From an uncultured Lachnospiraceae bacterium (lineage in GTDB: Bacteria > Bacillota > Clostridia > Lachnospirales > Lachnospiraceae), in the NCBI GenBank assembly GCA_949471785.1, contig CASWRE010000005.1:13342-77341 (forward strand): 64,000 nt of DNA, in the 5' to 3' direction. The position numbers and the translations under genes were made by a program. Below, one piece after another: positions 6,027-42,026 of this stretch; position 1 is the first letter of the stretch, and the number at the start of each line of letters is the position of its first letter. A model generated the notes under the pieces. That model searched no databases, was not told the origin of the DNA, and worked only from the letters and a program-made list of their open reading frames with translations.

Positions 6027-6929
6027 GTGTCCGGTGTGATGAGCAGGAAGAAGAAAGTAGAAGCCCTGCTGCTTAGCCTGCCCGCGTTTTTGCTGTATTC
6101 GTTCATTTTTATTTATCCGATGGCTTCCGTGTTCCGGCTATCCTTTTTTAAATGGAACGGTATCCCCAATTCACCGCTGGAGTATGTGGGATTAAAAAAC
6201 TATGTGGCGCTGTTTACGGACAGGCGGTTTTTTACGGCGCTGACTAATGTGGGGATTTTCATTTTGTCCGGCTGTATCCTGATCCTGCCGGCGGCCTTTT
6301 TTCTCGCCACAGTGATCCAGTCGAAAATGAAGGGAAAAAGACTCTTAAAGACCAGTTATTTCATGCCCCAGGTCATCAGCCGCACGGCGATCGCCCTGAT
6401 GTGGTATTTCCTGCTGTATCCCGAGGGCGGTCCTCTGGCTACTTTGATGGAAAGCCTTGGCTTTACCGATGTCAATGTGAACTTTCTGGGCAGCCAGACT
6501 TTTGCTATCTATGCGATCACCGTAATCAATGCCTGGACTTATGCGGGCTTTAATATGCTGATTTTCTCGGCGGGACTGACGGCCATCCCCGAGGATGTGT
6601 ATGAAGCGGCCCGGGTGGACGGGGCCCAGGGCTGGCAGAAGCTGCGCTATATTACGATACCCATGCTGAAAAGCAGTTTTCAGATTTTCCTCTTAAACTG
6701 CGTAGTCGGTTCCATCACCACCTTTGAGATGGTGTATGTGACCACCGGCGGCGGCCCGGGCAGCGCATCGGAGGTATTCGGTACGCTGCTGTACAAAAAT
6801 GCCTTTACCTACAATAATTACGGGTATTCCAATGCGATGGGTTCCTTTTTGATCGTGGCTTCCTTCCTGGCTAGCGTCCTTTTGACGGGGCTGTTTTCCA
6901 GGGGAGAGAAAGAGCAGGTGGCAGCATGA
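6027..6929 (+). CDS. ABC transporter permease (MalF/UgpA-like)
   Basis: Multi-TM protein with the EAA-type loop (EAARVDGAQGWQKLRYITIPMLK). The in-frame GTG at 6027 lies 8 nt after AAGGAGG; alternatives are 6018 and 6039. Confidence 0.85.
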   Translation: MSGVMSRKKKVEALLLSLPAFLLYSFIFIYPMASVFRLSFFKWNGIPNSPLEYVGLKNYVALFTDRRFFTALTNVGIFILSGCILILPAAFFLATVIQSKMKGKRLLKTSYFMPQVISRTAIALMWYFLLYPEGGPLATLMESLGFTDVNVNFLGSQTFAIYAITVINAWTYAGFNMLIFSAGLTAIPEDVYEAARVDGAQGWQKLRYITIPMLKSSFQIFLLNCVVGSITTFEMVYVTTGGGPGSASEVFGTLLYKNAFTYNNYGYSNAMGSFLIVASFLASVLLTGLFSRGEKEQVAA

Positions 6930-7753
6930 AGAAATTAAAAGTGGGAGATATCCTGTACCGTGTACTGGCGGTGTTCTTTTTCCTGATTTTTGTGTATCCG
7001 ATCTATTTTACCGTGGTTTCATCCTTTAAAAACAACACTGAGATCTGGAACACCATGTTTGCCCTTCCTTCCCATATCGAGTGGAGCAACTATGTCTCTT
7101 CGGTGGCGGACGTGGGCATACTGCGGGCAGTGCTGAATTCCTTTATCTTTTCCTTCGGCGCCTGCCTGGTGGTGGTGGTTTTTGTGACGATGGCGGCCTA
7201 TGTGGTGGCGCGGAAGCTCCTGCGTTTTTCCGGGGCGCTGAGGCTGTATTACCTGCTGGGGCTGATGATACCGCCCTATGCCATGCTGATCCCGGTGGTG
7301 ACGATGTTTACCGAGCTGGGTTTCCGGGATAAGTATTGGCCGATGATCCTTTTGTACGCCGCGGTGAATTTTCCTATGAGTTTTTATCTCATAACAGGCT
7401 GCATCGAAGGGGTCAGCAGGGAACTGGATGAGGCCGCTATCATGGACGGGTGCAGCACCACGGGCATTATTTTCCGGATTATTTTTCCGGTGGCGAGCCC
7501 GGGTATCTTTACCGGTGCGATTATATCGTTCCTGGCGGTCTACAATGAGCTGATCTTTGCCAACACATTGCTGACCAACCAGGCGATGAAGACAATCTCC
7601 GTGCGGCTTTTAGGGCTGCAGGGGGAGCGGTTTACAAGCTATGGGCCTATGTTTGCCTCCATTGTGCTGTCGATCCTGCCGATCCTGGCGGTTTACCTGC
7701 TGTTCCAGGAGAAAGTGGAGGGCGGCATCGCGGCGGGGGCCGTGAAAGGATGA
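6926..7753 (+). CDS. ABC transporter permease (MalG/UgpE-like)
   Basis: Overlaps the upstream permease by 4 nt. EAA loop DEAAIMDGCSTTGIIFRIIFPVASPG; six predicted TM segments. Confidence 0.88.
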   Translation: MKKLKVGDILYRVLAVFFFLIFVYPIYFTVVSSFKNNTEIWNTMFALPSHIEWSNYVSSVADVGILRAVLNSFIFSFGACLVVVVFVTMAAYVVARKLLRFSGALRLYYLLGLMIPPYAMLIPVVTMFTELGFRDKYWPMILLYAAVNFPMSFYLITGCIEGVSRELDEAAIMDGCSTTGIIFRIIFPVASPGIFTGAIISFLAVYNELIFANTLLTNQAMKTISVRLLGLQGERFTSYGPMFASIVLSILPILAVYLLFQEKVEGGIAAGAVKG

Positions 7754-8166
7754 GTGATATGGTACGAAGTACGTCATTGCAGCATATCGGTATTTTGGTG
7801 CCCGACGCGGAAAAAGCGGCGGACTGGTACTGTGGGAAATCGGATTTTGAGCGGCGGGCCGAATTTATGAGCCAGGGCAGCCGGGTGGTATTTGTGTATT
7901 CTCGGGGCACGGGAGTGCTGTGCGAGTTGATCCAGCGCCCGGCGGGCAGCGGAGAAGCCGCGGATATTGAGGAAAACGGCGCCAGGATCGACCACATTGC
8001 CTATGAGGTGGAGAACCTGGAGCTGGAATTTGCCCATGCGAAAGAGGCGGGCATGGATATTATAGAGGGGATTGTGGATATTCCCGAATTCTGGGACAAT
8101 GGTTTCCGCTACTTCCTGGTCAGGGGAGCCGGCGGAGAGAAGGTAGAATACTGCCGCGTGGTATAA
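7750..8166 (+). CDS. VOC (glyoxalase/bleomycin-resistance/dioxygenase) family protein
   Basis: 138 aa. N-terminal LQHIGILVPDAEKAADWY and HIAYEVENLE metal-ligand-type motifs. ATGA overlap with the permease stop. Confidence 0.7.
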   Translation: MSDMVRSTSLQHIGILVPDAEKAADWYCGKSDFERRAEFMSQGSRVVFVYSRGTGVLCELIQRPAGSGEAADIEENGARIDHIAYEVENLELEFAHAKEAGMDIIEGIVDIPEFWDNGFRYFLVRGAGGEKVEYCRVV

Positions 8167-13504: not shown

Positions 13505-14521
13505 ATGAAGAATAATGAAATGGTGGAATTGGGAAATATCCTTATCTACCAGACAGAAAAAGGCGATACCAAAATTGACGTGTTTTTCCAGAATGGCGAC
13601 ATCTGGATGAATCAGTCAGCTATTGCCAGACTATATAATACGACTCCACAGAACATCACTATGCATATCCGCAATATTTATGCTGATGGTGAACTGTACG
13701 AAACTTCAACTTGTAAAGATTTCTTACAAGTTCAAACAGAGGGAAAAAGGCAGATTAAACGGAAGAAAAAGCATTACAATTTTAAAATGATTCTTGCCGT
13801 TGGCTACCGTGTCCGTTCCAATGTGGGAATGCATTTTCGGAACTGGGCTTCTGCCATCTTAGAAGAATATTCCCGCAAGGGATTTTCCATGAATGACGAA
13901 CGCCTGAAAAATCCCAAGCCGTTTGGCGAAGATTATTTTGACGAATTGTTAGAGCGCATCCGCGAAATCAGGGCGTCGGAAAAGCGGTTTTACCAAAAAA
14001 TTTGCGACATATACAAAACATCTGTTGATTATTCCAGCAATGATAAAGATGCAGAATTATTGTTTAAAACTGTTCAGAGTAAAATACATTACGGAGTACA
14101 TGGGAATACCGCGGCAGAAGTCATTATGCAGAGGGCGGACGCCACGAAAGACAATATGGGGCTGACTGCTTTTGAGGGTGCGAAAGTCCGAAAAAAAGAT
14201 GTGGATATTGCAAAAAACTATCTCAATGCGGATGAAATGCAGGAATTAAACAGGGTGGTAACGATGTACCTGGACTTCGCGGAAGACCAGGCGCGAAGGC
14301 ATAACCCTATGTATATGAAAGATTGGGAAACTTACCTCAATAATTTCCTGAATATGACAGGACGGGAAGTGCTGTCTGGAGCTGGGCACATTTCTGCAAA
14401 ACAGGCAAAGGCACATGCCTATAAACAATATGAGCTTTATGACGAGAACCGAAAAAGAATAGAAAAAAATGAGGTTGATATGTTGATTGAGGAAACAGAA
14501 CAAATAAAACAGGAAAAGTGA
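13505..14521 (+). CDS. Virulence RhuM family protein
   Basis: 338 aa. ILIYQTEKGDTKIDVFFQNGDIWMNQSAIARLYNTTPQNITMHIRNIY... and ILAVGYRVRSNVGMHFRNWA are the characteristic RhuM N-terminal and core pattern. The gene is visibly AT-rich. Confidence 0.85.
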   Translation: MKNNEMVELGNILIYQTEKGDTKIDVFFQNGDIWMNQSAIARLYNTTPQNITMHIRNIYADGELYETSTCKDFLQVQTEGKRQIKRKKKHYNFKMILAVGYRVRSNVGMHFRNWASAILEEYSRKGFSMNDERLKNPKPFGEDYFDELLERIREIRASEKRFYQKICDIYKTSVDYSSNDKDAELLFKTVQSKIHYGVHGNTAAEVIMQRADATKDNMGLTAFEGAKVRKKDVDIAKNYLNADEMQELNRVVTMYLDFAEDQARRHNPMYMKDWETYLNNFLNMTGREVLSGAGHISAKQAKAHAYKQYELYDENRKRIEKNEVDMLIEETEQIKQEK

Positions 14522-23247: not shown

Positions 23248-25035
23248 TTATTTATACCATGTATAGAATTTCCATTTGGATAAATCCAACTGCTTAATAG
23301 CGGATGTATCAATAACATTCGTGTCTGTGGCGGGGCAGAACTGATAACAAGTCCCATCTTCGACGGATCGCGCTATCATATGCCACGCATACCAATCTGG
23401 CGTACCATATGGATATTTGCCATACATATTTTCCAGCGGATAACCGATCATTTCTCCAAAGGCCGTTAAAATAGCGGGCGAAGTGTAAGAATTGACTTCA
23501 AATTTTGGGAATTTCCAAAAAGGTATCGCCGTATCCGCAGCTAAAGTAACATAACCGGGGCGGCCGTCTGCTGGTGTTTTACTATAAATAGAGTTTTGGG
23601 CCAGATAGCGTGTGATCGCTTCCATTTTAGCTTTTTTTGTCATGGATGCTGTAGTTACTTTGTCAATGACGGACTGCCGCCATATCCTTTCCTCCTTAGC
23701 CATATCCTTTATGTCGATATATCCCTTCCCGGCGTCTGCAGTTATCGGGGTTTGGTATAGCGGGGGGATATCTCTATAGCTTCTATAGTGTATCCTGTTC
23801 CCCTTGGCGTCAGAGAGATATTCTGTAACGGAAATCCTACATTTCCCTGGATCCAAAAATAAAAATACGCCAAGATATCCGCCATCCGTTTTATACAAAA
23901 AACCGGGAGTCATAGTGCCCATACGTTTTAAATCTGCGTAATAACAATCAGTCATAGCGACCAGCGGATCATTTTCTTTGTCAGTGGCCACATCAATGAA
24001 TTCTAATTCAAAGTTTTTGGAAGACGGATTATCGGTTTTTATATATACAAGATTGAATGCGCCATATGAATATGGCGGGTTCAAAAAGTTGATTTCATAG
24101 GTATACTGGGGCTTGGGAGCCACAACCTTGATCTTTTGGCTTACACTTTTACCGTCTACAGTGGCCGTAATGGTGGTTGTTCCGGGGTTCTCGGCATAAA
24201 TTATTACAGCCTCCTCTTCCTTCGGGCCGTTAAAAAAATCATCTACAAAATCTATAACGTCGGTATTAGATGATTTCCATGTGATCTTTCCATGCTTGGA
24301 AGAACTGCATTCGACACGGATAATGAGTTCTTCCGTTGGATACATGGTACTGACCATATCTTTAGCAAAACGGATACTGCTCTGGCTGTTTGCCGCTTTT
24401 TTTACCGTCAGCTTGCAGACGGCTTTTTTTCCGGTTCCGTCCGCCGCTTTGGCGGTGATGGTGGCATTTCCGTTTCCGACCGCTTTTACAGTCCCTTTGC
24501 TGTTCACTGTCGCAACTTTCTTATTAGAAGTTGTCCATACGATATCCTTGCTGCCGCCTGCGCTTGCCTTAACGGCCGCCGTAAGTTTTACTGTAGCGCC
24601 TGTTTTAAGCGTGTGGGAGGTCTTGTTCAGTGCAATGTTTGTTACTTTGCCTTTTAGCACTTTGACAGTGACCGTAGCTTTTACCTTCTTGTTTTTGACT
24701 GATGTTACGGTGATTTTCGCTGTACCCGGTTTTTTGCCGGTAATCACACCCTTGCTTGTGACAGTCGCTACTTTTTTGTTTGAACTTTTATAAATGACCT
24801 TTTTGTTTGCCGATTTATTTGGCGTAACGGTCACAGTCGTCTTGAGAGTAGCCTTTTTGCCCTTGGCAAGTTTGATCGTCTTGCTTTTCGTCAACGAATT
24901 CACGGAAGCAACTTTTTTAACCGTCACTTTTGGGGCCGCTTCAACCGTCCTGCCCATTATCACAAACCATGCCATTGCAATAAGGAACATCACACTTCCG
25001 ACCATAAGCGCCCGTGGCTTTCTTTGCGTTTTCAT
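23248..25035 (-). CDS. Secreted Ig-like (Big_2) repeat protein with an uncharacterised C-terminal domain
   Basis: Signal/TM MKTQRKPRALMVGSVMFLIAMAWFVIMG. Three K/T/V-rich Big_2-like repeats (..KKVATVTSKGVITGKKPGTAKITV.., ..KKVATVNSKGTVKAVGNGNATITA..). A C-terminal half of about 300 aa has no motif I recognise. The gene is AT-rich. Confidence 0.75.
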   Translation of the reverse strand: MKTQRKPRALMVGSVMFLIAMAWFVIMGRTVEAAPKVTVKKVASVNSLTKSKTIKLAKGKKATLKTTVTVTPNKSANKKVIYKSSNKKVATVTSKGVITGKKPGTAKITVTSVKNKKVKATVTVKVLKGKVTNIALNKTSHTLKTGATVKLTAAVKASAGGSKDIVWTTSNKKVATVNSKGTVKAVGNGNATITAKAADGTGKKAVCKLTVKKAANSQSSIRFAKDMVSTMYPTEELIIRVECSSSKHGKITWKSSNTDVIDFVDDFFNGPKEEEAVIIYAENPGTTTITATVDGKSVSQKIKVVAPKPQYTYEINFLNPPYSYGAFNLVYIKTDNPSSKNFELEFIDVATDKENDPLVAMTDCYYADLKRMGTMTPGFLYKTDGGYLGVFLFLDPGKCRISVTEYLSDAKGNRIHYRSYRDIPPLYQTPITADAGKGYIDIKDMAKEERIWRQSVIDKVTTASMTKKAKMEAITRYLAQNSIYSKTPADGRPGYVTLAADTAIPFWKFPKFEVNSYTSPAILTAFGEMIGYPLENMYGKYPYGTPDWYAWHMIARSVEDGTCYQFCPATDTNVIDTSAIKQLDLSKWKFYTWYK

Positions 25036-34314: not shown

Positions 34315-34818
34315 TTGAGGATGGAGATGGTATCGGCCGGAACCGCGCTGTTTGCCGGAGAGGCAGTCGGGGCGACGGCTGTGGCTTTTGTCACCGGACG
34401 TGCGGCAGCGGCTATCTGTGTGGCGTTTTTTTCCGGGATGGCGGTGGCCTGCAGTACGGCGGCTTTTATTCTGGCCCTGGGTATTGTTCCCCGGGTGGCG
34501 GCCATCAGCGGTACTACCCGCCTGATTCTCTGGTATGAGGATTGCATGATGGCGGGGATCTTCATCGGCATTTTGCTGGAACTGGATTTTATCCGTCTGC
34601 CCCTGGGGATGCCCGCACTGTGGGCGGTGGGCATTCTGGGTGGGATGTTTCTCGGATGCTGGACGGCGGCTCTGGGAGAGATTGTTAATATTTACGCGGT
34701 GCTGCAGCGCCGGGCCAAAATTGAGAAAGGGTTTGCGCTGGTGGTTCTGGCGCTGGCTCTGGGAAAAGCGGCGGGCGCGTTGATTTACTTTTTTTGGACA
34801 GGAGGTAATCTATGGTAA
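34315..34818 (+). CDS. spoVAB: Stage V sporulation protein AB
   Basis: 167-aa multi-TM protein between spoVAA and spoVAC. The call rests on position and topology. Confidence 0.65.
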   Translation: MRMEMVSAGTALFAGEAVGATAVAFVTGRAAAAICVAFFSGMAVACSTAAFILALGIVPRVAAISGTTRLILWYEDCMMAGIFIGILLELDFIRLPLGMPALWAVGILGGMFLGCWTAALGEIVNIYAVLQRRAKIEKGFALVVLALALGKAAGALIYFFWTGGNLW

Positions 34819-35270
34819 CGGAGGAAGAAAAGAAAGAGTATCAGGAGTATGTGGAGGAGATTACCCCCACGCACAGCCTGCCGAAAAACATGTGTAAGGC
34901 GTTTCTGGTGGGCGGCGTGATCTGTGCGGTGGGACAGGCTTTCCTGAATTGGGGCGCGGCCCTGGGCCTGGACGAGAAAACGGCGGGGAGCTTCTGCTCG
35001 ATTTTGCTGGTATTGTCCAGTGTTGTGCTGACAGGCTTGAATATCTGGCCTTACATCGGCAAATTCGGCGGGGCCGGGGCCCTGGTGCCGATCACGGGCT
35101 TTGCCAACAGCGTGGCGGCCCCTGCCATTGAGTATCAGAAAGAAGGACAGGTATTCGGCATCGGGGCGAAGATATTTACGATTGCCGGGCCGGTGATTTT
35201 GTATGGGATTTTATCGAGCTGGGCGCTGGGGCTGGTTTACTGGATCGGGAAGATGGTGGGGGTATTTTAA
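34812..35270 (+). CDS. spoVAC: Stage V sporulation protein AC
   Basis: EYVEEITPTHSLPKNMCKAFLVGGVICAVGQ ... GAGALVPITGFANS is the conserved SpoVAC pattern. 152 aa. Confidence 0.88.
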   Translation: MVTEEEKKEYQEYVEEITPTHSLPKNMCKAFLVGGVICAVGQAFLNWGAALGLDEKTAGSFCSILLVLSSVVLTGLNIWPYIGKFGGAGALVPITGFANSVAAPAIEYQKEGQVFGIGAKIFTIAGPVILYGILSSWALGLVYWIGKMVGVF

Positions 35271-35424
35271 GAGAGGTCGCAGAAAAGATATAGAAGCAGA
35301 GTTTGTATGATGAGCAGGGTGGCGATGAAATGATTTGTCAGCCTGCTTTTTATTGTACTTTTGGCTTTTTTCGCTTATAATATGAACATATTGAAACGTA
35401 GGTTATTTCTCTTATGATTTATTT

Positions 35425-36051
35425 GTGTCAAAGATCAATGCTATTGACAGTATTCTTGCAAATCAGACTTTATCTGATCTGAATCAGAAACTGGAGGAGG
35501 AGAATAAGAAGAATCAGAAACTTGATGCAGAGATAGAAAAACTTCAGAAGCTGAAAGATATTGCATCTCAGAGAGCAAACGATATCAGAGATGTTGTAGA
35601 GAAGCTTTCGAAAGACGAGCATGAAAAAGTAGGACCCGCTCTTAGTAAGTTCTATAATAAGTTGATAAGATTAAATTCTAATGAGGGAATCAACATTGTC
35701 CAGGAAAATGAGGGAATCTCATTAGTTGATGATAAGGGTAAGAATATCGTTAATGTTTTAAGTAATGGTCAGATTAGTGTCTTTATGTTGGCTCATTTTT
35801 TTGCAGGTATCAATGCAAGGAATGACCGTGAAAAGATGAAAGTGTTTTTTATCGATGACCTGACTGCCTGTATGGATGATGTAAATATGCTTGCGTTCAT
35901 GGATTTACTTAAGTATCAAATGACGTCAAAAGCAACCATGGAGCAGTTATTTTTCATTACCTGTGATGACCGTATTAGTAAGTTATTGAAGTATAAGTTA
36001 AAAGGACGTGGGATTGAATTGCGTGAACTTTTAGAAACAGATTTCGCATAG
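35425..36051 (+). pseudogene. C-terminal remnant of an SMC/RecF-like ABC ATPase
   Basis: Only about 208 aa: a coiled-coil segment, signature LSNGQIS, Walker B KVFFIDDL and a D-loop. There is no N-terminal Walker A half, and the ORF opens directly after a stop. Confidence 0.6.
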
Positions 36052-36058
36052 TATTCTG

Positions 36059-36832
36059 GTGATATGTCAAGAACTTTTAGATTTCAAATTATTTTTTACC
36101 GTAAAGATAAAAAAGAAGTATCACCTTGAATGCGAAAGCAGCCTGCCGGATGGCAGAATGATGATAAGGCTTTTTGAATATGATGCCCAGATCGCACTTG
36201 ACGAGGGGGAGGTCACAGAGGAAGTTTTGAGAGTGACATTTCCCAATACGGCGGTGTTATATCTTCGGACGTATAAAAAGACACCGGATAAAATGAAGTA
36301 TGTGATTGTTACGCCTGGTGGAACTGTACAGTATGATGTACCAATCATGAAAGTGCAGACTTATTCGTTGGATGATATTTTTGAAAAGAAGTTGCTGCTT
36401 TTGATCCCGTTTTATATTTTCTCACATGAGAAGCGGTTTCCGGAGTATAATGATAATGAAGAGAAGCTGTCAGAATTGAAAGTGGAATACCATACGATTC
36501 TGGACAGGCTCAATGAGATGGAACATTGGGGAGTGATCGGGGCATTTGATAAGAGGACGATTATAGAGTTTTCTAACGATGTGATAAAAGAAATCGCACA
36601 AAAATATGAAAATGTGCAGAAAGGCGTAGGTGATATCATGGGTGGGGCGTTGATTGAAACAGAGGCAAGAACGATATTGAATCAGGGAAAAAGCCAGGGT
36701 AGAGATGAAACAAAAAAGAAGATGGCGCTTCGAATGTTGGATGATGGAGAGTTACCTGTTGAGAAAATTGCACGGTATTCGGGACTCGAAGTTGCGGAAG
36801 TGGAGCAACTTGTAAAGGGTCGGGCAAAGTAA
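36059..36832 (+). CDS. Rpn-family recombination-promoting nuclease / putative transposase (YhgA-like), probably N-terminally truncated
   Basis: KKYHLECESSLPDGRMMIRLFEYDAQIAL (hLEFQS-type core), plus a C-terminal ...KMALRMLDDGELPVEKIARYSGLEVAEVEQL tail typical of this family. The frame only opens at 36035, so the usual N-terminal 30-40 aa are missing. Confidence 0.6.
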   Translation: MICQELLDFKLFFTVKIKKKYHLECESSLPDGRMMIRLFEYDAQIALDEGEVTEEVLRVTFPNTAVLYLRTYKKTPDKMKYVIVTPGGTVQYDVPIMKVQTYSLDDIFEKKLLLLIPFYIFSHEKRFPEYNDNEEKLSELKVEYHTILDRLNEMEHWGVIGAFDKRTIIEFSNDVIKEIAQKYENVQKGVGDIMGGALIETEARTILNQGKSQGRDETKKKMALRMLDDGELPVEKIARYSGLEVAEVEQLVKGRAK

Positions 36833-36910
36833 GGTTTTTCAGTTATGTATTGGTATTGTTAGGAATTTAATATACAAAGAAGGATTTTTGGTGGGAAAAG
36901 CGGTGATACA

Positions 36911-39442
36911 ATGCAGCAGGTTGAATTTCAGGTCAGTGCAAAAACGGCGAGACTGATTGGGCGGGAAAACATAGCGGATGTGGACGGGGCGTTGATTGAA
37001 TTGATCAAGAATTCCTATGATGCGGATGCCACCTGCGTGTATGTTGATTTTTTCATGCCGTTTCCGGATGTTCCCGACAGGGCGGCCATGGGGGCCTTTT
37101 CGGATTATCTGTCAGAGGGGGAATTATCTTTTGTACGGGATTGCTATGAAGAGGAAAAGGGAGAGTGGAGGAAGAAAAGAGACCTGTCGGAAGAGGAACA
37201 GAACGAACTGCAGAGACTATTGTTTTCCCATAACAGGATCATTGTCGCAGACAACGGTTCCGGCATGAGTCTGGATATTGTGAAAGACGCATGGATGCAT
37301 ATCGGAACCAGCAATAAAGAATATAACAGCGTGTCTGACAAGGGGCGCATTAAAACAGGGGCGAAAGGAATCGGACGGTTTGCGCTGGATAAGCTGTCGG
37401 TTCACTCTGTTATGTATACGAAAGACAAGGAGGCCGGGGAGGTTTTGCGCTGGGCCATGGACTGGACTCAGTTTGAGAAAGCAAAACTGATCGGAGACGT
37501 GAAGGCAGAGCTGGATTTTTGCGGGACGGAATACAGGGAAATTGTAGGACAAATGCTGGGGAGAGAAAATCCTGTTTTATCGGAACACGACTGGTCTGCA
37601 GGAACCGTGATCGTGCTGACGCCCATCAGGGAGGCCTGGAGCGCAAGGCTTTTTAGAAAAGTAAATGCGAATCTGAAAAGTATCAATCCCATGGGGAGCG
37701 CTGACCGGTTTGAGGTGATTGTGAATAACCATTTTTATCCGGAATTTGATTACAGGACGGAAGTCGTATCTATAGACGAGGATGATTATGATTACAGGAT
37801 AAAGGCGGAATACGATGGGAAGGATTTCCTGAGTATCCGGCTGCTTCGGAACGAAGTCAATCTTTACAAAAGGCATATCACGGTGGAAAAATATGGAAAG
37901 ACTCAGAAAAGATCTGTGGAAGAATTCTGGGCGAGAGATAAATTTCAAAAAAAGGGCTATCAGAAGGAAGACTATGGGAATGAGATAGCCTTTCAAAGAA
38001 ATGTTCAGGAGCTTCTTCCGGGGGATGGGCCGGAGAAAATACAAAAAGTGGGACCGTTTACTGCGGAGCTGTATTTTTTGAGAAATGCGAATAATGAGCA
38101 TGCCATCATGAAAAAGGTGGCCGTCAGAAAGAGAAGAAATCTGCTAAACCAGTTTTCCGGTGTGAAACTATACCGGGATAATTTTAAAGTGCGCCCTTAT
38201 GGAGACGAGGGGGCGATGTACGACTGGTTGGGGATGAGCGAACGGGCGCAGAAAAGTTCCATATCTGTGGCAAACCAAAGAACTGCCTGGCGGGTACAGC
38301 CCTATCAGATGATCGGATTGGTAAAAATCGGGCGTGAGTCGAACCCGTATCTGGAGGACATGGCAAACCGGGAAGGAATTGCATTGACGGATACCTATTA
38401 TATCTTTGTCAATCTTTTGCAGGAATGTTTGAAAGAGTTTGAATATGACCGGCAGTATATTTACAGGGAATACGCAAAATGGATTGATTCGATAGAAAGT
38501 GAGATGGCAGATTACACGAAGAAGATACAGGGGGAGGCTGTCCGCAGGGCAGAAGGCTCTGGCGGGAGCGACGGGATCACGGATGACCCAGAATCGGCGG
38601 GAGACACAGGGAGCGGGACAAAGCGGGAAAGCAAGTTTACAGAGAAGGAAATGTATGATACCGTCTATGAAATGATGAGAGAATCGGAAAGAGAGCTGAA
38701 CAGCAAGCAGATCCAGCAGGTGTTGAGTTCTTCCGGCATTCTACTGAATACGTTTTTTCATGAGTTCAATGCGATGAATACTCAATTTCATGTGGAAGCC
38801 TCCCAGATACGGAGTAGGATCAATTACATTTTAAAAGGCAAGGAATACGAAGGGCTGGCCGCATATAATCCTTATAACCGTATTGACAGCCTGGAAAAGA
38901 ACGACATGGTGACGGCAGCATTTTTGGATGTGATCATGGACGGACTGAAGAAGGAAAATCTGAAGGTACAGGAAAATTCCCTGAAAGCAATGATTACGGA
39001 GATATTGTCCAAATGGAAGGTGCTTTTGGGAGAGAAGCATATTCAGGTTCAGTCGGTTTCGGAAGAGGGCACGGCGGCAGAAGACCGTATACCACTTGCC
39101 CTGGTGGATATGTATATCATACTAAATAATTTTATCCTGAATTCTGCCTGGTTTCTGGAACAGGAGCATAACAACAGGAGAGAGATTACTTTCCGGCTAA
39201 AAGAAAAAGACGACGGACTGTATTTGATAATGGAAAATAATGGGCCGGTTCTTGCGGAAAAATATCGAGATAACCCGGATAGGATATTTGAACTGGGAGA
39301 AACTTCTAAAGAAGGAAAAGGAACCGGCCTGGGCCTTTGGGTGGTGAAGGAAACCGTGGAGCGCAACGACGGGACGATTTCAGTGATGGAGAAGCAGGCA
39401 GGCTTTGGACTGGAAATTGTATGGAAGAAAGGGAGGCAGTGA
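36911..39442 (+). CDS. Two-GHKL protein: N-terminal MORC/Hsp90/MutL-like ATPase (HATPase_c_3-type) fused to a histidine-kinase core (DHp + HATPase_c)
   Basis: N-terminal boxes: ELIKNSYDA (N), VADNGSGM (G1), GAKGIGRFA (G2); a transducer-like GVKLYRDNFKVRPYGDEG..DWLG. C-terminal boxes: H-box-like LLNTFFHEFNAMN, N ILNNFILNS, G1 MENNGPV, G2 GKGTGLGLWVV. 843 aa. Confidence 0.75.
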   Translation: MQQVEFQVSAKTARLIGRENIADVDGALIELIKNSYDADATCVYVDFFMPFPDVPDRAAMGAFSDYLSEGELSFVRDCYEEEKGEWRKKRDLSEEEQNELQRLLFSHNRIIVADNGSGMSLDIVKDAWMHIGTSNKEYNSVSDKGRIKTGAKGIGRFALDKLSVHSVMYTKDKEAGEVLRWAMDWTQFEKAKLIGDVKAELDFCGTEYREIVGQMLGRENPVLSEHDWSAGTVIVLTPIREAWSARLFRKVNANLKSINPMGSADRFEVIVNNHFYPEFDYRTEVVSIDEDDYDYRIKAEYDGKDFLSIRLLRNEVNLYKRHITVEKYGKTQKRSVEEFWARDKFQKKGYQKEDYGNEIAFQRNVQELLPGDGPEKIQKVGPFTAELYFLRNANNEHAIMKKVAVRKRRNLLNQFSGVKLYRDNFKVRPYGDEGAMYDWLGMSERAQKSSISVANQRTAWRVQPYQMIGLVKIGRESNPYLEDMANREGIALTDTYYIFVNLLQECLKEFEYDRQYIYREYAKWIDSIESEMADYTKKIQGEAVRRAEGSGGSDGITDDPESAGDTGSGTKRESKFTEKEMYDTVYEMMRESERELNSKQIQQVLSSSGILLNTFFHEFNAMNTQFHVEASQIRSRINYILKGKEYEGLAAYNPYNRIDSLEKNDMVTAAFLDVIMDGLKKENLKVQENSLKAMITEILSKWKVLLGEKHIQVQSVSEEGTAAEDRIPLALVDMYIILNNFILNSAWFLEQEHNNRREITFRLKEKDDGLYLIMENNGPVLAEKYRDNPDRIFELGETSKEGKGTGLGLWVVKETVERNDGTISVMEKQAGFGLEIVWKKGRQ

Positions 39443-40089
39443 TGTATCGGATCGGTATCATTGACGACGCAAAAAGCGAACGTGATGACATACAGGTGTC
39501 TGTTTTGGACAATGTGGGCTGGAATGCGGAAGTTGAATTTAAAGAATATGAGCTGGAAGGAAGAACGCGGGAAGAAATCGTTGGCGAAATACGGCAGGAC
39601 GTGGAAGAGGGAATGATACATGCCTTGATCGTTGATTTTAAATTAGATACGACGGCAGATGTGATAGAGGGATGGGAGATTATCGAGTTTATGCATGAAG
39701 AAACGCCGGAATTTCCCGTCGTCATCATGACGAACGCACCGGACGAAAGCAAAAGATCGCAACATACGGACGCAGATAAAGTATATGCAAAAAAGGTATT
39801 TCTGAAACCGGATCTTGATATCACAAAAGAGCTTGTGAACAACATTATGTTGAATATGGAAAAATATACTTCCCGTAGAAAAGAGCTGGAGGAGAGATTA
39901 GAAATCTGTCTGAAAAGGCTGGACGAAAACGGGGCAAGTCAGGAGACGCTGGAAGAAGTCATTACGGTAGAAAACGAACTGAGCAGATACAAACAGATCT
40001 ATCAGACAACCGTGGATACGGCGTTGGACATGTCCGACTTAAAAGAAGCGTTTGAAGAACTGGACAAATATGAAAAACTGTTAGGGTGA
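39442..40089 (+). CDS. Receiver (REC) domain protein with a C-terminal coiled-coil extension
   Basis: The ATG overlaps the upstream stop (TGATG). IGIIDD, ALIVDFKLD (candidate phospho-acceptor Asp), VVIMTN, YAKK; then about 90 aa of helical, charged sequence. No DNA-binding output domain was recognised. Confidence 0.65.
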   Translation: MYRIGIIDDAKSERDDIQVSVLDNVGWNAEVEFKEYELEGRTREEIVGEIRQDVEEGMIHALIVDFKLDTTADVIEGWEIIEFMHEETPEFPVVIMTNAPDESKRSQHTDADKVYAKKVFLKPDLDITKELVNNIMLNMEKYTSRRKELEERLEICLKRLDENGASQETLEEVITVENELSRYKQIYQTTVDTALDMSDLKEAFEELDKYEKLLG

Positions 40090-40093
40090 GGTT

Positions 40094-40732
40094 ATGAAGT
40101 ACGCACAGTTTAAAGAGCATGAGATACGCCGGACGTGTACGAAGCAATTTGATACTCCGCAGAAATACAGGCCATATCTGCAAAAAGATTTCCAGGGCAG
40201 GTGCTGTTATTGTAATATGCCGGAGGATCTGGTGACTGTCCCGTATCATGTGGAGCATTTTATTCCGGAAAAAGCTTTTAAAGGGATCAGAGACGAGCTA
40301 AAGACAGATTATAACAATTTGATGTGGTCATGTCCGAAATGCAATTTATCAAAAGGGGAAAAGTATCAGGGGAATATACACGATGATTCTAAAATAGCGA
40401 ATGAGTATTTTTATAATCCGGTAGAAATGGATTATAATCGTATATTCTACCGTAATGAGTTGGGCGGTATTGATTCGGACGACCAGAAAGGCCGTGAAAT
40501 GATAAAGCTGTTAAAGCTATACCGCCCGGTACATAATCTTGCGTGGCTTCTGGAACGGATGGAGCGCTTATGTGCTCAGTTGGAGGAACGGCAAAAGACG
40601 GAAAAGAATTTAGGAAAACGGCAGTTACTGGAGTCTGCGGCAGGTAAAGTTGCAAGAGAATGTGTGAAAAAAGAAAAGCTGTTCCGAGCGGTTTACAGAG
40701 GAAAAAGAATATTTAAGAATTCTATATTTTAG
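40094..40732 (+). CDS. HNH endonuclease
   Basis: Starts 4 nt after the REC stop. CCYCN ... HVEHFIP ... NNLMWSCPKCNLSKG (a Cys4 zinc / H-N-N type HNH core). 212 aa. Confidence 0.8.
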   Translation: MKYAQFKEHEIRRTCTKQFDTPQKYRPYLQKDFQGRCCYCNMPEDLVTVPYHVEHFIPEKAFKGIRDELKTDYNNLMWSCPKCNLSKGEKYQGNIHDDSKIANEYFYNPVEMDYNRIFYRNELGGIDSDDQKGREMIKLLKLYRPVHNLAWLLERMERLCAQLEERQKTEKNLGKRQLLESAAGKVARECVKKEKLFRAVYRGKRIFKNSIF

Positions 40733-40856
40733 ACAAATCCTTATCTAGAGCGGGCGCTAATGACGGGAATCACGAGGGTCAGCAAGGAATCAATTTTTTC
40801 GGATTCCGGCGCGGAGAATCCGGAGAAACTGCAGGCAACGATTACTTGCAGGGTGT

Positions 40857-42026
40857 TTAGAAATACTGCAGATATTCCCGGATCTGGAATGCGGCCATAA
40901 GGGCAAAACGTTTCTGCATATCTTCCAGGGGCAGCCTGAATTCCTCTCGGAGTACCCGGATTCGGTAATTGACGGTGTTGCGATGGCAATACAGGGCCGC
41001 CGCAATCTGCCGGACACTGCCGCCGCACAGCAGGTACCAGTACAGTGTGTCCAGATAATTGCTGCCGTGTCCCTCGTCGTAGCGCAGGATAGGGCCCAGC
41101 TGTTCCTCCATATAGGATTCCAAAAGGGAGCGGTCGTCCATGGAGAGCAGCAGCCGGAAGAATCCCAATTCATCAAAGGTGTAAAACAGACGTTTTCTGG
41201 CCGCCGCCATGGCCGCGGCGGCTTTGGCATGGGCATAGCTTTTGGCAAGTCCGTCCAGCGCGGGGACACGGCTGCCCAGCCCTCCGTAAAAATGCAGTTC
41301 CGGAAAAGCCGTGGAGAGCTCGCCGGGCAGCCGGGCAAGCTCCCGTTTCAGAAAATCTTGAGGAAGACCGATGGATAAAATCAGGAACTGGCGGCCCGTA
41401 TGGCACAGGTATAGGCCAGAATGAAGATCTCTGAGAATACGCCTGAGAAAAAAGGACAATCGTGAGCTTTTTTCTCCTTCCGATGGATCGGTATATTCCA
41501 GGCAACAGATACAGTAGTCTGCGTATTCCGGATAGCCGTAGCCTGCCAGAAGCGACAGGCTCCGGGCGGCATCCGGGCCGTTGTGGATCAGCTCCAGCAG
41601 GGCGGCAGTTATAGCGTGTTCCGTCTGGGTGTCGGAAAAGATGCGGTCATAGTAATCATGGGTGATGTCAAAGATCAGCACCTCCCATGGCATGGTAAAT
41701 ACAGGGAAATGATTGCGGTCGCAAAGGCGTCGGATTTCCCCGGTGATATCCTCTTCCTGTAGATATTTTCCCACGTTGATGATCAGCCCGCAGGTATTCT
41801 GCCGGATTAGGCGTGAGATAAAATCGTACAACCATCCTTCCGATTGACTGCAGGCGAAACCGGTGGTCAGCACCAGCTCGCCGCTCTGCAGGAAACGGCA
41901 GGTGGCAATGTCTTCGGAAATATGCACCCAGGTCATGATCTGATCCAGGCCGGAGCCTCCGCAGATTAATTTCAGATGATATTTCTGTCGGGTTTCTTCG
42001 TAAATATGCTGCAGGCTGAGTGACAT
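40857..42026 (-). CDS. PucR family transcriptional regulator
   Basis: 389 aa. C-terminal PucR-type HTH (IAAALYCHRNTVNYRIRVLREEF). Divergent from the aminotransferase operon. Confidence 0.8.
   Translation of the reverse strand: MSLSLQHIYEETRQKYHLKLICGGSGLDQIMTWVHISEDIATCRFLQSGELVLTTGFACSQSEGWLYDFISRLIRQNTCGLIINVGKYLQEEDITGEIRRLCDRNHFPVFTMPWEVLIFDITHDYYDRIFSDTQTEHAITAALLELIHNGPDAARSLSLLAGYGYPEYADYCICCLEYTDPSEGEKSSRLSFFLRRILRDLHSGLYLCHTGRQFLILSIGLPQDFLKRELARLPGELSTAFPELHFYGGLGSRVPALDGLAKSYAHAKAAAAMAAARKRLFYTFDELGFFRLLLSMDDRSLLESYMEEQLGPILRYDEGHGSNYLDTLYWYLLCGGSVRQIAAALYCHRNTVNYRIRVLREEFRLPLEDMQKRFALMAAFQIREYLQYF

Follow-up and report, generated by a model that had tools for sequence, protein, structure and literature searches.

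Homologues of the Ambrosia kinase, receiver and nuclease in a Lachnospiraceae genome: a probable methylase-less variant of a named anti-phage system

Introduction

The window considered here is a stretch of 64,000 nucleotides from an uncultured Lachnospiraceae bacterium (GenBank assembly GCA_949471785.1, contig CASWRE010000005.1, positions 13,342 to 77,341 of the forward strand). Three adjacent genes at positions 36911-40732 of this window encode a MORC-like ATPase fused to a histidine kinase, a receiver protein and an HNH nuclease. The locus raises the question of whether these genes form an anti-phage system, whether such a system already has a name, and whether the three genes could work as they stand. 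An initial annotation, made from the DNA sequence alone, had taken them for a candidate defence operon with an architecture matching no named system. The first part of this proposal is supported by the homology of the three products to AbrB, AbrC and AbrD of Ambrosia, a validated system. The second part had to be abandoned: Ambrosia has this architecture, a comparable kinase-receiver pair was described by Bellieny-Rabelo et al. (2021, PMC8011034), and an association of paraMORC ATPases with HNH genes by Iyer, Abhiman and Aravind (2008, PMC2292703). The window copy is a reduced, methylase-less variant of an already named system, and not a new system.

Ambrosia was described in a preprint of September 2025 as an anti-phage system of Pseudomonas aeruginosa that blocks two phage groups (bioRxiv 10.1101/2025.09.30.679545, to which all the statements about Ambrosia in this paragraph refer). 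It consists of five genes, encoding a HipB-like XRE regulator that heads the cluster (AbrR), an N6-adenine methylase (AbrA), a histidine kinase/Hsp90-like ATPase (AbrB), a receiver (AbrC) and an HNH protein (AbrD). According to its authors every protein is required, a conclusion based on point mutants of every predicted domain; among these, AbrB N40A, AbrC D60A and AbrD H60A abolish protection. Reporters placed at abrA or abrD show hardly any expression until infection induces them, and phage from AbrA-expressing cells remain sensitive to Ambrosia, so that the methylase gives phage DNA no protection. The system causes no harm to its host. The authors further state that AbrC carries a winged helix-turn-helix (HTH), and their survey found the system in Gammaproteobacteria only.

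Results and discussion

Homology to AbrB, AbrC and AbrD

The three genes are as follows:

36911-39442, plus strand: gene 1, 843 aa, AbrB homologue with a MORC-like GHKL ATPase and a histidine-kinase core
39442-40089, plus strand: gene 2, 215 aa, AbrC homologue with a receiver domain and a helical tail
40094-40732, plus strand: gene 3, 212 aa, AbrD homologue, a PtuB-like HNH nuclease

The coordinates given in the initial annotation were confirmed on the sequence, as was the close packing of the genes: the TGA stop codon of gene 1 and the ATG of gene 2 have one base in common (TGATG), and a gap of 4 nt separates the stop of gene 2 from the start of gene 3. All the sequence motifs that had been quoted for the three proteins were found in the translations.

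For the comparison with Ambrosia, sequences were taken from Table S1 of the preprint (AbrC and AbrD in full, AbrB and AbrA over their first ~400 residues) and searched with profile hidden Markov models (HMMs) built solely from relatives of the window genes. The kinase model matched the available part of AbrB with E = 4.7e-84, the receiver model matched AbrC over its full length (residues 1-206; E = 1e-36), the HNH model matched AbrD with E = 2e-51, and the model of the methylase that accompanies the relatives matched AbrA with E = 1.9e-57. Direct comparison by BLASTP aligned gene 1 with AbrB at 27.6% identity over 496 aa (E = 2e-46) and gene 3 with AbrD at E = 6e-11. In addition, the mutated Ambrosia residues map onto the window proteins, AbrB N40 corresponding to N34, AbrC D60 to D65 and AbrD H60 to H55. 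The alignment with AbrB takes in RPYG and NREG, motifs specific to the transducer, so that a similarity limited to generic GHKL or HNH motifs is unlikely. Because of these profile and BLASTP matches and of the shared mutated residues, the window genes are assigned, at the level of sequence, as homologues of AbrB, AbrC and AbrD.

The resemblance extends to the organization of the genes and proteins. The gene order is the same, AbrB has the same set of Pfam domains as gene 1 (HATPase_c_3, HATPase_c and HATPase_c_5), AbrC is a stand-alone receiver of ~209 aa with a helical tail of the same kind as that of gene 2, and AbrD is a PtuB-like HNH protein of ~213 aa for which the authors' table gives the same PtuB and TIGR02646 matches as were found for gene 3. 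Conversely, the window lacks the AbrA methylase and AbrR, its proteins are only ~22-28% identical to those of Pseudomonas, the host is a Firmicute, and gene 1 carries an insert of ~55 residues and has Asn in place of Asp in its G1 box. On balance, we consider it likely that the triplet consists of the abrB, abrC and abrD homologues of an anti-phage system of the Ambrosia family, horizontally acquired by a spore-forming, Lachnospiraceae-like host and lacking AbrA and AbrR.

A MORC-like ATPase fused to a kinase core

The following features of gene 1 are referred to below:

36911-38590, plus strand: GHKL ATPase and transducer-like domain, followed by a long helix (residues 1-560)
37010-37012, plus strand: codon of N34, GHKL ATPase
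37250-37252, plus strand: codon of D114, GHKL ATPase
38198-38200, plus strand: codon of Y430, RPYG motif of the transducer-like domain
38759-38761, plus strand: codon of His617 in the FFHEF motif, followed by Glu618; predicted autophosphorylation site
39101-39421, plus strand: kinase catalytic ATP-binding domain (residues 731-837), with N box N740/N744 and G2 box GTGLG

Pfam recognized HATPase_c_3 at residues 107-198 (E = 7.5e-13) and HATPase_c at residues 734-829 (E = 4.7e-12), the latter region (731-837) also matching HATPase_c_5. The N-terminal part, which includes the GAKGIGR loop, was modelled with AlphaFold2 over residues 1-560 from an alignment of 35 sequences, with a mean predicted local distance difference test score (pLDDT) of 84.3. 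In a Foldseek search, the best matches of this model were DNA-bound MORC2, MORC3 and MORC4, followed by Topo VI-B, Hsp90 and SMCHD1, with E values of 2e-11 to 1e-8 and moderate TM-scores of 0.4-0.47. As the model best resembles MORC ATPase modules, the N-terminal part of gene 1 is predicted to be a GHKL ATPase with a transducer domain.

The C-terminal part was compared with solved structures by using a profile of 57 divergent relatives of gene 1, which matched histidine kinases (ThkA, HK853, ZraS and others) over both the dimerization and histidine phosphotransfer (DHp) and the catalytic and ATP-binding domains (E ~1e-17). His617 falls in the stretch aligned with the DHp helices of these kinases. 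ATPase motifs I-III are kept in the relatives of gene 1; N34 is invariant in the 57 divergent relatives and at least 90% conserved among 125 relatives of 24-51% identity, in all of which D114, H617, N740 and N744 are invariant. The proposal of a MORC-like ATPase with a transducer and an H-box kinase was thus borne out by Pfam, the kinase profile and Foldseek. That of a protein devoid of transmembrane segments also held, since no stretch of transmembrane strength occurs in any of the three gene products (maximum Kyte-Doolittle mean over 19 residues, 1.38).

The family of gene 1 comprises 391 clusters at 50% identity (E <= 1e-30), most of them full length, and relatives are publicly annotated simply as 'sensor histidine kinase'. 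ATPase motifs I and II are separated by the insert of ~55 residues (residues ~45-105; window positions 37040-37225), which was found in Lachnospiraceae-type kinases, is missing from many others, and was modelled as a small helix-strand unit with pLDDT > 90.

A receiver with a helical tail

Gene 2 alone gave a sub-threshold match to Response_reg in Pfam (E = 0.006). A profile of 31 family members searched against solved structures found PhoP (1mvo) with E = 1.7e-8, placing D65 on the acceptor Asp, and all the 60 matches listed were receivers or response regulators by name, save one de novo design. It is by this profile search that gene 2 is identified as a true receiver. Its AlphaFold2 model was poor (pLDDT 62.8), and the weak LysR/OxyR-type matches that were all Foldseek returned for that low-confidence model were discarded. 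The receiver occupies approximately residues 1-122, with D8/D9, the acceptor D65 (39634-39636), T97 and K117. In a cross-phylum alignment of 11 sequences D65, T97 and K117 are invariant and D8 is nearly so; among 31 more divergent relatives, D65 alone remains invariant.

The receiver is followed by a tail of ~90 residues, charged and poorly conserved, for which only helices and no beta wing are predicted (in the same low-confidence model). No HTH family matched gene 2 or the five relatives scanned, which agrees with the original description of a receiver devoid of a recognizable DNA-binding output.

Among distant relatives of the kinase on contigs of a viral collection, the adjacent receiver carries at its C-terminus a fused domain of 200-250 residues without annotation, in some cases with Cys/His clusters (L050 6433-7665, L054 5323-6471, L061 10387-11409, L041 10250-11353, and also L081, L093 and L048; here and below, individual loci are designated by L numbers). 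No HNH gene of the gene 3 family was detected at these loci, and the proteins may be receiver-effector fusions.

An HNH nuclease related to PtuB

The assignment of gene 3 as an HNH nuclease was upheld by Pfam (HNH, E = 1.2e-7). The protein contains a CxxC...CxxC zinc site (C37, C40, C80 and C83), and both CxxC pairs are conserved in 20 relatives together with the predicted catalytic H55 (40256-40258), N75, N84 and K87; it ends in a helical C-terminal tail. Gene 3 matched the PtuB models of PADLOC (E down to 3e-14) and TIGR02646 (E = 1.2e-9), and a PADLOC match to PtuA1 covers the HNH part of the PtuA1 profile. Since it scores below the NCBIfam cut-offs (38.5 bits against PtuB, for which the cut-off is 150), gene 3 is best described by sequence as a relative of PtuB and not as a member of that family.

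Conserved neighbourhood

Related loci were collected from genomes, plasmids, metagenomes and a viral-contig collection, about 35 of them being informative and distinct. The order kinase-receiver-HNH was kept in every related locus with enough sequence, in several phyla. The triplet is therefore conserved as a unit, and is not a chance juxtaposition. An Eco57I-type N6-adenine methylase lies directly up- or downstream of the triplet in 29 of the ~35 informative loci; these methylase-adjoining loci come from at least five phyla, among them Bacillota, Bacteroidota, Pseudomonadota and Deinococcota. In two loci a small HTH gene precedes the methylase: L003 (HTH_26, Cro/C1-type, E = 5e-16) and L019, a Deinococcus plasmid (HTH_31, E = 5e-9). 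Hence, the three-gene unit that had been proposed was right in that kinase, receiver and nuclease belong together, but the usual cassette has four or five genes, with the N6-adenine methylase and, in some loci, an HTH regulator.

The cassettes are nearly always of lower GC content than their surroundings. Their neighbours include integrases, BREX, Ppl, an nSTAND NTPase and toxin-antitoxin genes. Kinase family members are also found in Alphaproteobacteria, on plasmids and on contigs of a viral-sequence collection. Annotated plasmid examples come from Bacteroides finegoldii, Bacillus sp., Salipiger profundus, Deinococcus gobiensis and Klebsiella variicola, and the example from K. pneumoniae is an integrase-flanked island.

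All the relatives examined with at least 79% identity to the window triplet are without the usual adjacent methylase; at 75% identity or less, the dedicated methylase is present. The methylase-less triplets occur in the following settings:

Lachnospiraceae bacterium 3-1: triplet after spoVAC, as in the window
A locus beside small S-adenosylmethionine-dependent methyltransferase genes, not of the DNA methylase type
A short contig
L099 8001-11834 (also L100 and L101): triplet 82% identical, within a complete type 1 BREX operon

In L099 the order of the genes is brxA, brxB, brxC, pglX, kinase, receiver, HNH, pglZ, brxL, with gaps of 16 bp from pglX and 27 bp to pglZ. The place held at other loci by the dedicated AbrA-type methylase is taken here by PglX, which is likewise an N6-adenine methylase and belongs to the same superfamily; the PglX beside the L099 triplet matches the catalytic core of the cassette methylase HMM with E = 4e-13. 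It is conceivable, if on the whole doubtful, that the triplet is not a relic but a transferable nuclease module, which cooperates with a methylase whose gene lies elsewhere. If true, the triplet would read or depend on the methylation of another defence system, and would give BREX a nuclease effector.

Chromosomal setting and horizontal transfer

The features surrounding the triplet are listed below:

34812-35270: spoVAC, directly before the island
35001-41000: low-GC island (40-46% GC, against ~54% in the flanks), between spoVAC and the PucR-type regulator gene
35425-36051, plus strand: C-terminal remnant of an LmuB/AAA_13-type SMC-like ATPase, 208 aa (Pfam AAA_13, E = 2.2e-10)
36059-36832, plus strand: Rpn-family-like remnant open reading frame (ORF), 257 aa, resembling the C-terminus of Rpn-family nucleases
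40857-42026, minus strand: PucR-type regulator gene, convergent, after the island

The setting is a sporulation locus, in which a tetratricopeptide repeat (TPR) protein gene, spoIIAB, sigF, spoVAA, spoVAB and spoVAC are followed by the island. The description of an AT-rich island beside gene remnants proved accurate. The LmuB-like fragment, of Lamassu type, matched LmuB in PADLOC with E = 1.3e-14 over profile positions 402-582 of 713 only. The Rpn-like ORF gave no match in Pfam and a below-cut-off match to NCBIfam TIGR01784 (recombination-promoting nuclease/putative transposase; E = 2.4e-4) at positions 191-273 only. A sigma-70-like site (TTGAAA-16 nt-TATGAT) at 35391-35418, ahead of the LmuB-like fragment, is the sole good promoter candidate upstream of the triplet; a simple terminator scan after gene 3 gave nothing convincing. 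The island DNA had no match in plasmid and phage records, nor did a protein search against complete phage genomes return any.

The triplets of the window and of Lachnospiraceae bacterium 3-1 share 77-83% identity, against 32-69% for the flanking core proteins. This much stronger conservation of the cassette indicates that it was horizontally transferred and reached the same spot twice; vertical inheritance at the spoVAC site was rejected on the same ground. The ratio of nonsynonymous to synonymous substitution rates (dN/dS), calculated against two relatives, was 0.04-0.09 for each of the three genes, which points to strong purifying selection, with the qualification that dS is saturated and a recent loss of function would be invisible.

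The insertion point behind spoVAC (window 34812-36910; L001 7334-8001; L102 7334-18529) is also used in a different genus. In L102, cargo genes separate spoVAC from spoVAD and spoVAE, which lie ~7.5 kb away; the 64-kb window itself yielded no homologue of spoVAD. The spoVAC-spoVAD gap may be an integration hotspot. At the same site, L102 (10517-10681; also L103 and L104) has an intact kinase gene with a 54-aa remnant in place of receiver and HNH genes, and this remnant matches the end of the HNH gene.

Proposed mechanism and alternative explanations

On the basis of these comparisons, we infer a signal, a phosphotransfer, a switch of the nuclease and a substrate as follows. Gene 1 would be a cytoplasmic sensor whose MORC-like ATPase and transducer detect an infection-associated signal, most plausibly on DNA, given that DNA-bound MORC2 is the closest structural match and that the distant kinase of L041 has an EcoRII-N-like domain. 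The signal would cause the C-terminal kinase core to autophosphorylate at His617, from which Asp65 of gene 2 would receive the phosphoryl group, and the phosphorylated receiver would release the HNH activity of gene 3 through a protein-level switch involving the receiver's helical tail. As regards L041, its kinase has ~400 extra N-terminal residues (6831-8030) with a weak EcoRII-N-like match (E = 1.6e-4, below cut-off); such a domain would fit DNA sensing.

It should be noted that several observations weigh against this interpretation of the triplet as a working, Ambrosia-like defence cassette. The pairwise match of gene 2 with AbrC is weak (BLASTP E = 0.06), the strong link being by profile only. 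The cassette methylase HMM found nothing in the 64-kb window, nor any remnant in 35201-36950; no HTH gene adjoins the triplet in the window; and a point mutation in the methylase domain of AbrA abolished Ambrosia defence (10.1101/2025.09.30.679545). A simple scan found no sigma-70-like promoter in the 78 bp before gene 1, the triplet adjoins gene remnants, and the deletion of receiver and nuclease genes in L102-L104 indicates that decay does occur. The G1 box of the kinase reads NNG, with N776 (39236-39238) in place of the usual Asp, which is present in 103 of the 125 relatives, Asn being found in the other 22. However, N776 is common to the whole Lachnospiraceae clade, methylase-keeping copies included, and is therefore not a sign of decay in the window copy. 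As to the substrate, Septu is reported in one paper to cleave a tRNA (PMC13096335), so DNA may not necessarily be the target of PtuB-type HNH enzymes. Finally, the authors of Ambrosia favour transcriptional control, where protein-level gating is favoured here.

The absent methylase, adjacent in most informative relatives and apparently indispensable in Ambrosia, together with the neighbouring remnants, the losses at the same site and the want of a clear promoter before gene 1, could mean that the triplet is an inactive relic of a four- or five-gene system that no longer defends after the loss of methylase and regulator. Such a relic would hardly be expected to keep three intact, full-length frames with every conserved catalytic residue. 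The low dN/dS also argues for maintenance, within the limit set by saturation, and the methylase-less triplets of 79-83% identity in at least four genomic settings suggest that the triplet moves and persists as a unit. Decay into a relic is accordingly rated as an unlikely, though not negligible, explanation. A role in host physiology, e.g. as an ordinary two-component pathway of sporulation, might be suggested by the position directly downstream of spoIIAB, sigF and spoVAA-AB-AC and by the public annotation of the relatives as sensor histidine kinases, and seems highly improbable. Such a pathway would be at odds with the lack of a DNA-binding output, with the HNH gene linked in every informative relative and the DNA methylase in most, across phyla, plasmids and integrative islands, with the foreign base composition of a cassette far more conserved than the sporulation genes around it, and with the defence against phage provided by the Ambrosia homologues (10.1101/2025.09.30.679545).

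A different question is how the nuclease would be controlled. In the model of the Ambrosia authors, the receiver, once phosphorylated, acts as a transcription factor and induces the operon on infection, the nuclease being active once made; the infection-induced abrA and abrD reporters, barely expressed at rest, and the winged HTH stated for AbrC speak for it (10.1101/2025.09.30.679545). We regard this model as a serious, if unlikely, rival for the window genes, and favour gating at the protein level, because the receiver has no detectable DNA-binding domain, because receiver and nuclease both end in helical, charged tails, and because distant receivers are fused to C-terminal domains where no HNH gene was found, which suggests coupling of receiver and effector at the protein level. 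Against transcriptional control stand also the absence of any HTH family match in gene 2 and five relatives, the tail predicted (at low confidence) as helices lacking a beta wing, the same kind of tail in AbrC, and the translational coupling of the genes behind the kinase gene, by which kinase and nuclease would be made together.

Comparison with other systems

Soluble kinases composed of HATPase_c_3, a DHp domain (HEF_HK) and HATPase_c, with adjacent, divergent stand-alone receivers (Response_reg_2), have been described in linkage with restriction-modification genes. In that computational study the HEF_HK pairs were linked to methylases and to HNH or other nucleases, and were judged to be paraMORC-derived (Bellieny-Rabelo et al., 2021, PMC8011034). 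The window has the same architecture, being soluble, with a His-Glu pair in the DHp domain, an adjacent divergent receiver and restriction-modification neighbours in the relatives. The HEF_HK set, however, occurs mainly with C5-cytosine methylases, Vsr and HNH_2, whereas the window family occurs with Eco57I-type N6-adenine methylases and PtuB-like HNH proteins. The corresponding Pfam models (PF19191/PF19192), searched with no positive control, matched neither the DHp and receiver regions of the window at E up to 10, nor any of 57 relatives at E <= 0.001, nor relatives from Klebsiella, Dickeya, Serratia, Stenotrophomonas, Bacillus and other hosts. PF19191 is treated as a current model in a 2026 preprint. 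Formal membership of these families is not supported, and by the Pfam-model criterion the window family would be at best a sister group of HEF_HK/Response_reg_2. A Stenotrophomonas plasmid (L112 3751-8465) carries a C5-cytosine methylase, a kinase of the superfamily and two unannotated ORFs of 212 and 226 aa, which matched neither the family profiles nor Pfam; its neighbourhood resembles that reported in PMC8011034, although HEF_HK did not match L112 either.

The paraMORC ATPases belong to restriction-modification systems, and paraMORC1, which has a C-terminal extension, co-occurs with HNH genes (Iyer, Abhiman and Aravind, 2008, PMC2292703). Gene 1 shares with them intact GHKL motifs and an S5-like transducer, in a model that resembles MORC2, MORC3 and MORC4; with paraMORC1 it shares, by description only, the C-terminal extension and the HNH neighbours. 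Unlike here, neither a kinase core nor a receiver partner was recognized in PMC2292703. Septu and retron HNH proteins resemble gene 3 in its matches to PtuB models and TIGR02646, but the partners of gene 3 are a kinase and a receiver instead of the PtuA ABC-type ATPase, and no PtuA-type gene is present.

Detocs is an anti-phage phosphorelay with a soluble kinase (DtcA), a receiver (DtcB) and a receiver-effector (DtcC). The window genes share with it the soluble kinase and the proposed phosphorelay, and differ from it in that the Detocs sensor is of the TPR type, that there are two receiver proteins, and that the effector is joined to a receiver. The contrast with Detocs drawn in the initial annotation was a fair one. 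No Detocs model was among the PADLOC matches of genes 1-3; across all PADLOC systems, genes 1 and 2 gave only noise. Among other candidates, MADS was set aside, since its preprint has a histidine kinase only as an island boundary gene, and so was WASA of Vibrio cholerae, a GHKL-Shedu fusion of different architecture. The only mention of a HATPase and REC system predicted by DefensePredictor is in a figure legend, without detail.

Other low-GC patches of the window

Two further patches of low GC content were observed. The patch at 13-15 kb (41% GC) holds a gene for a RhuM-family virulence protein at 13505-14521 (Pfam E = 3e-109), which is probably another acquired element. The patch at 23-25 kb (44% GC) holds, on the minus strand at 23248-25035, a gene for a 594-aa protein with bacterial Ig-like (Big_2) domains.

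Conclusions

For the window alone the result is modest, namely a reduced member of a named system. For the family as a whole, the 391 clusters, with members in Bacillota, Bacteroidota, Deinococcota and Alphaproteobacteria, on plasmids and on viral contigs, make Ambrosia-like systems far broader than the Gammaproteobacteria in which they were reported. Methylase-less triplets under purifying selection bear on the role of the methylase, i.e. on whether it serves sensing or self-protection, and such natural variants would make it easy to test which signal the MORC-like sensor reads and in what way the receiver gates the nuclease.

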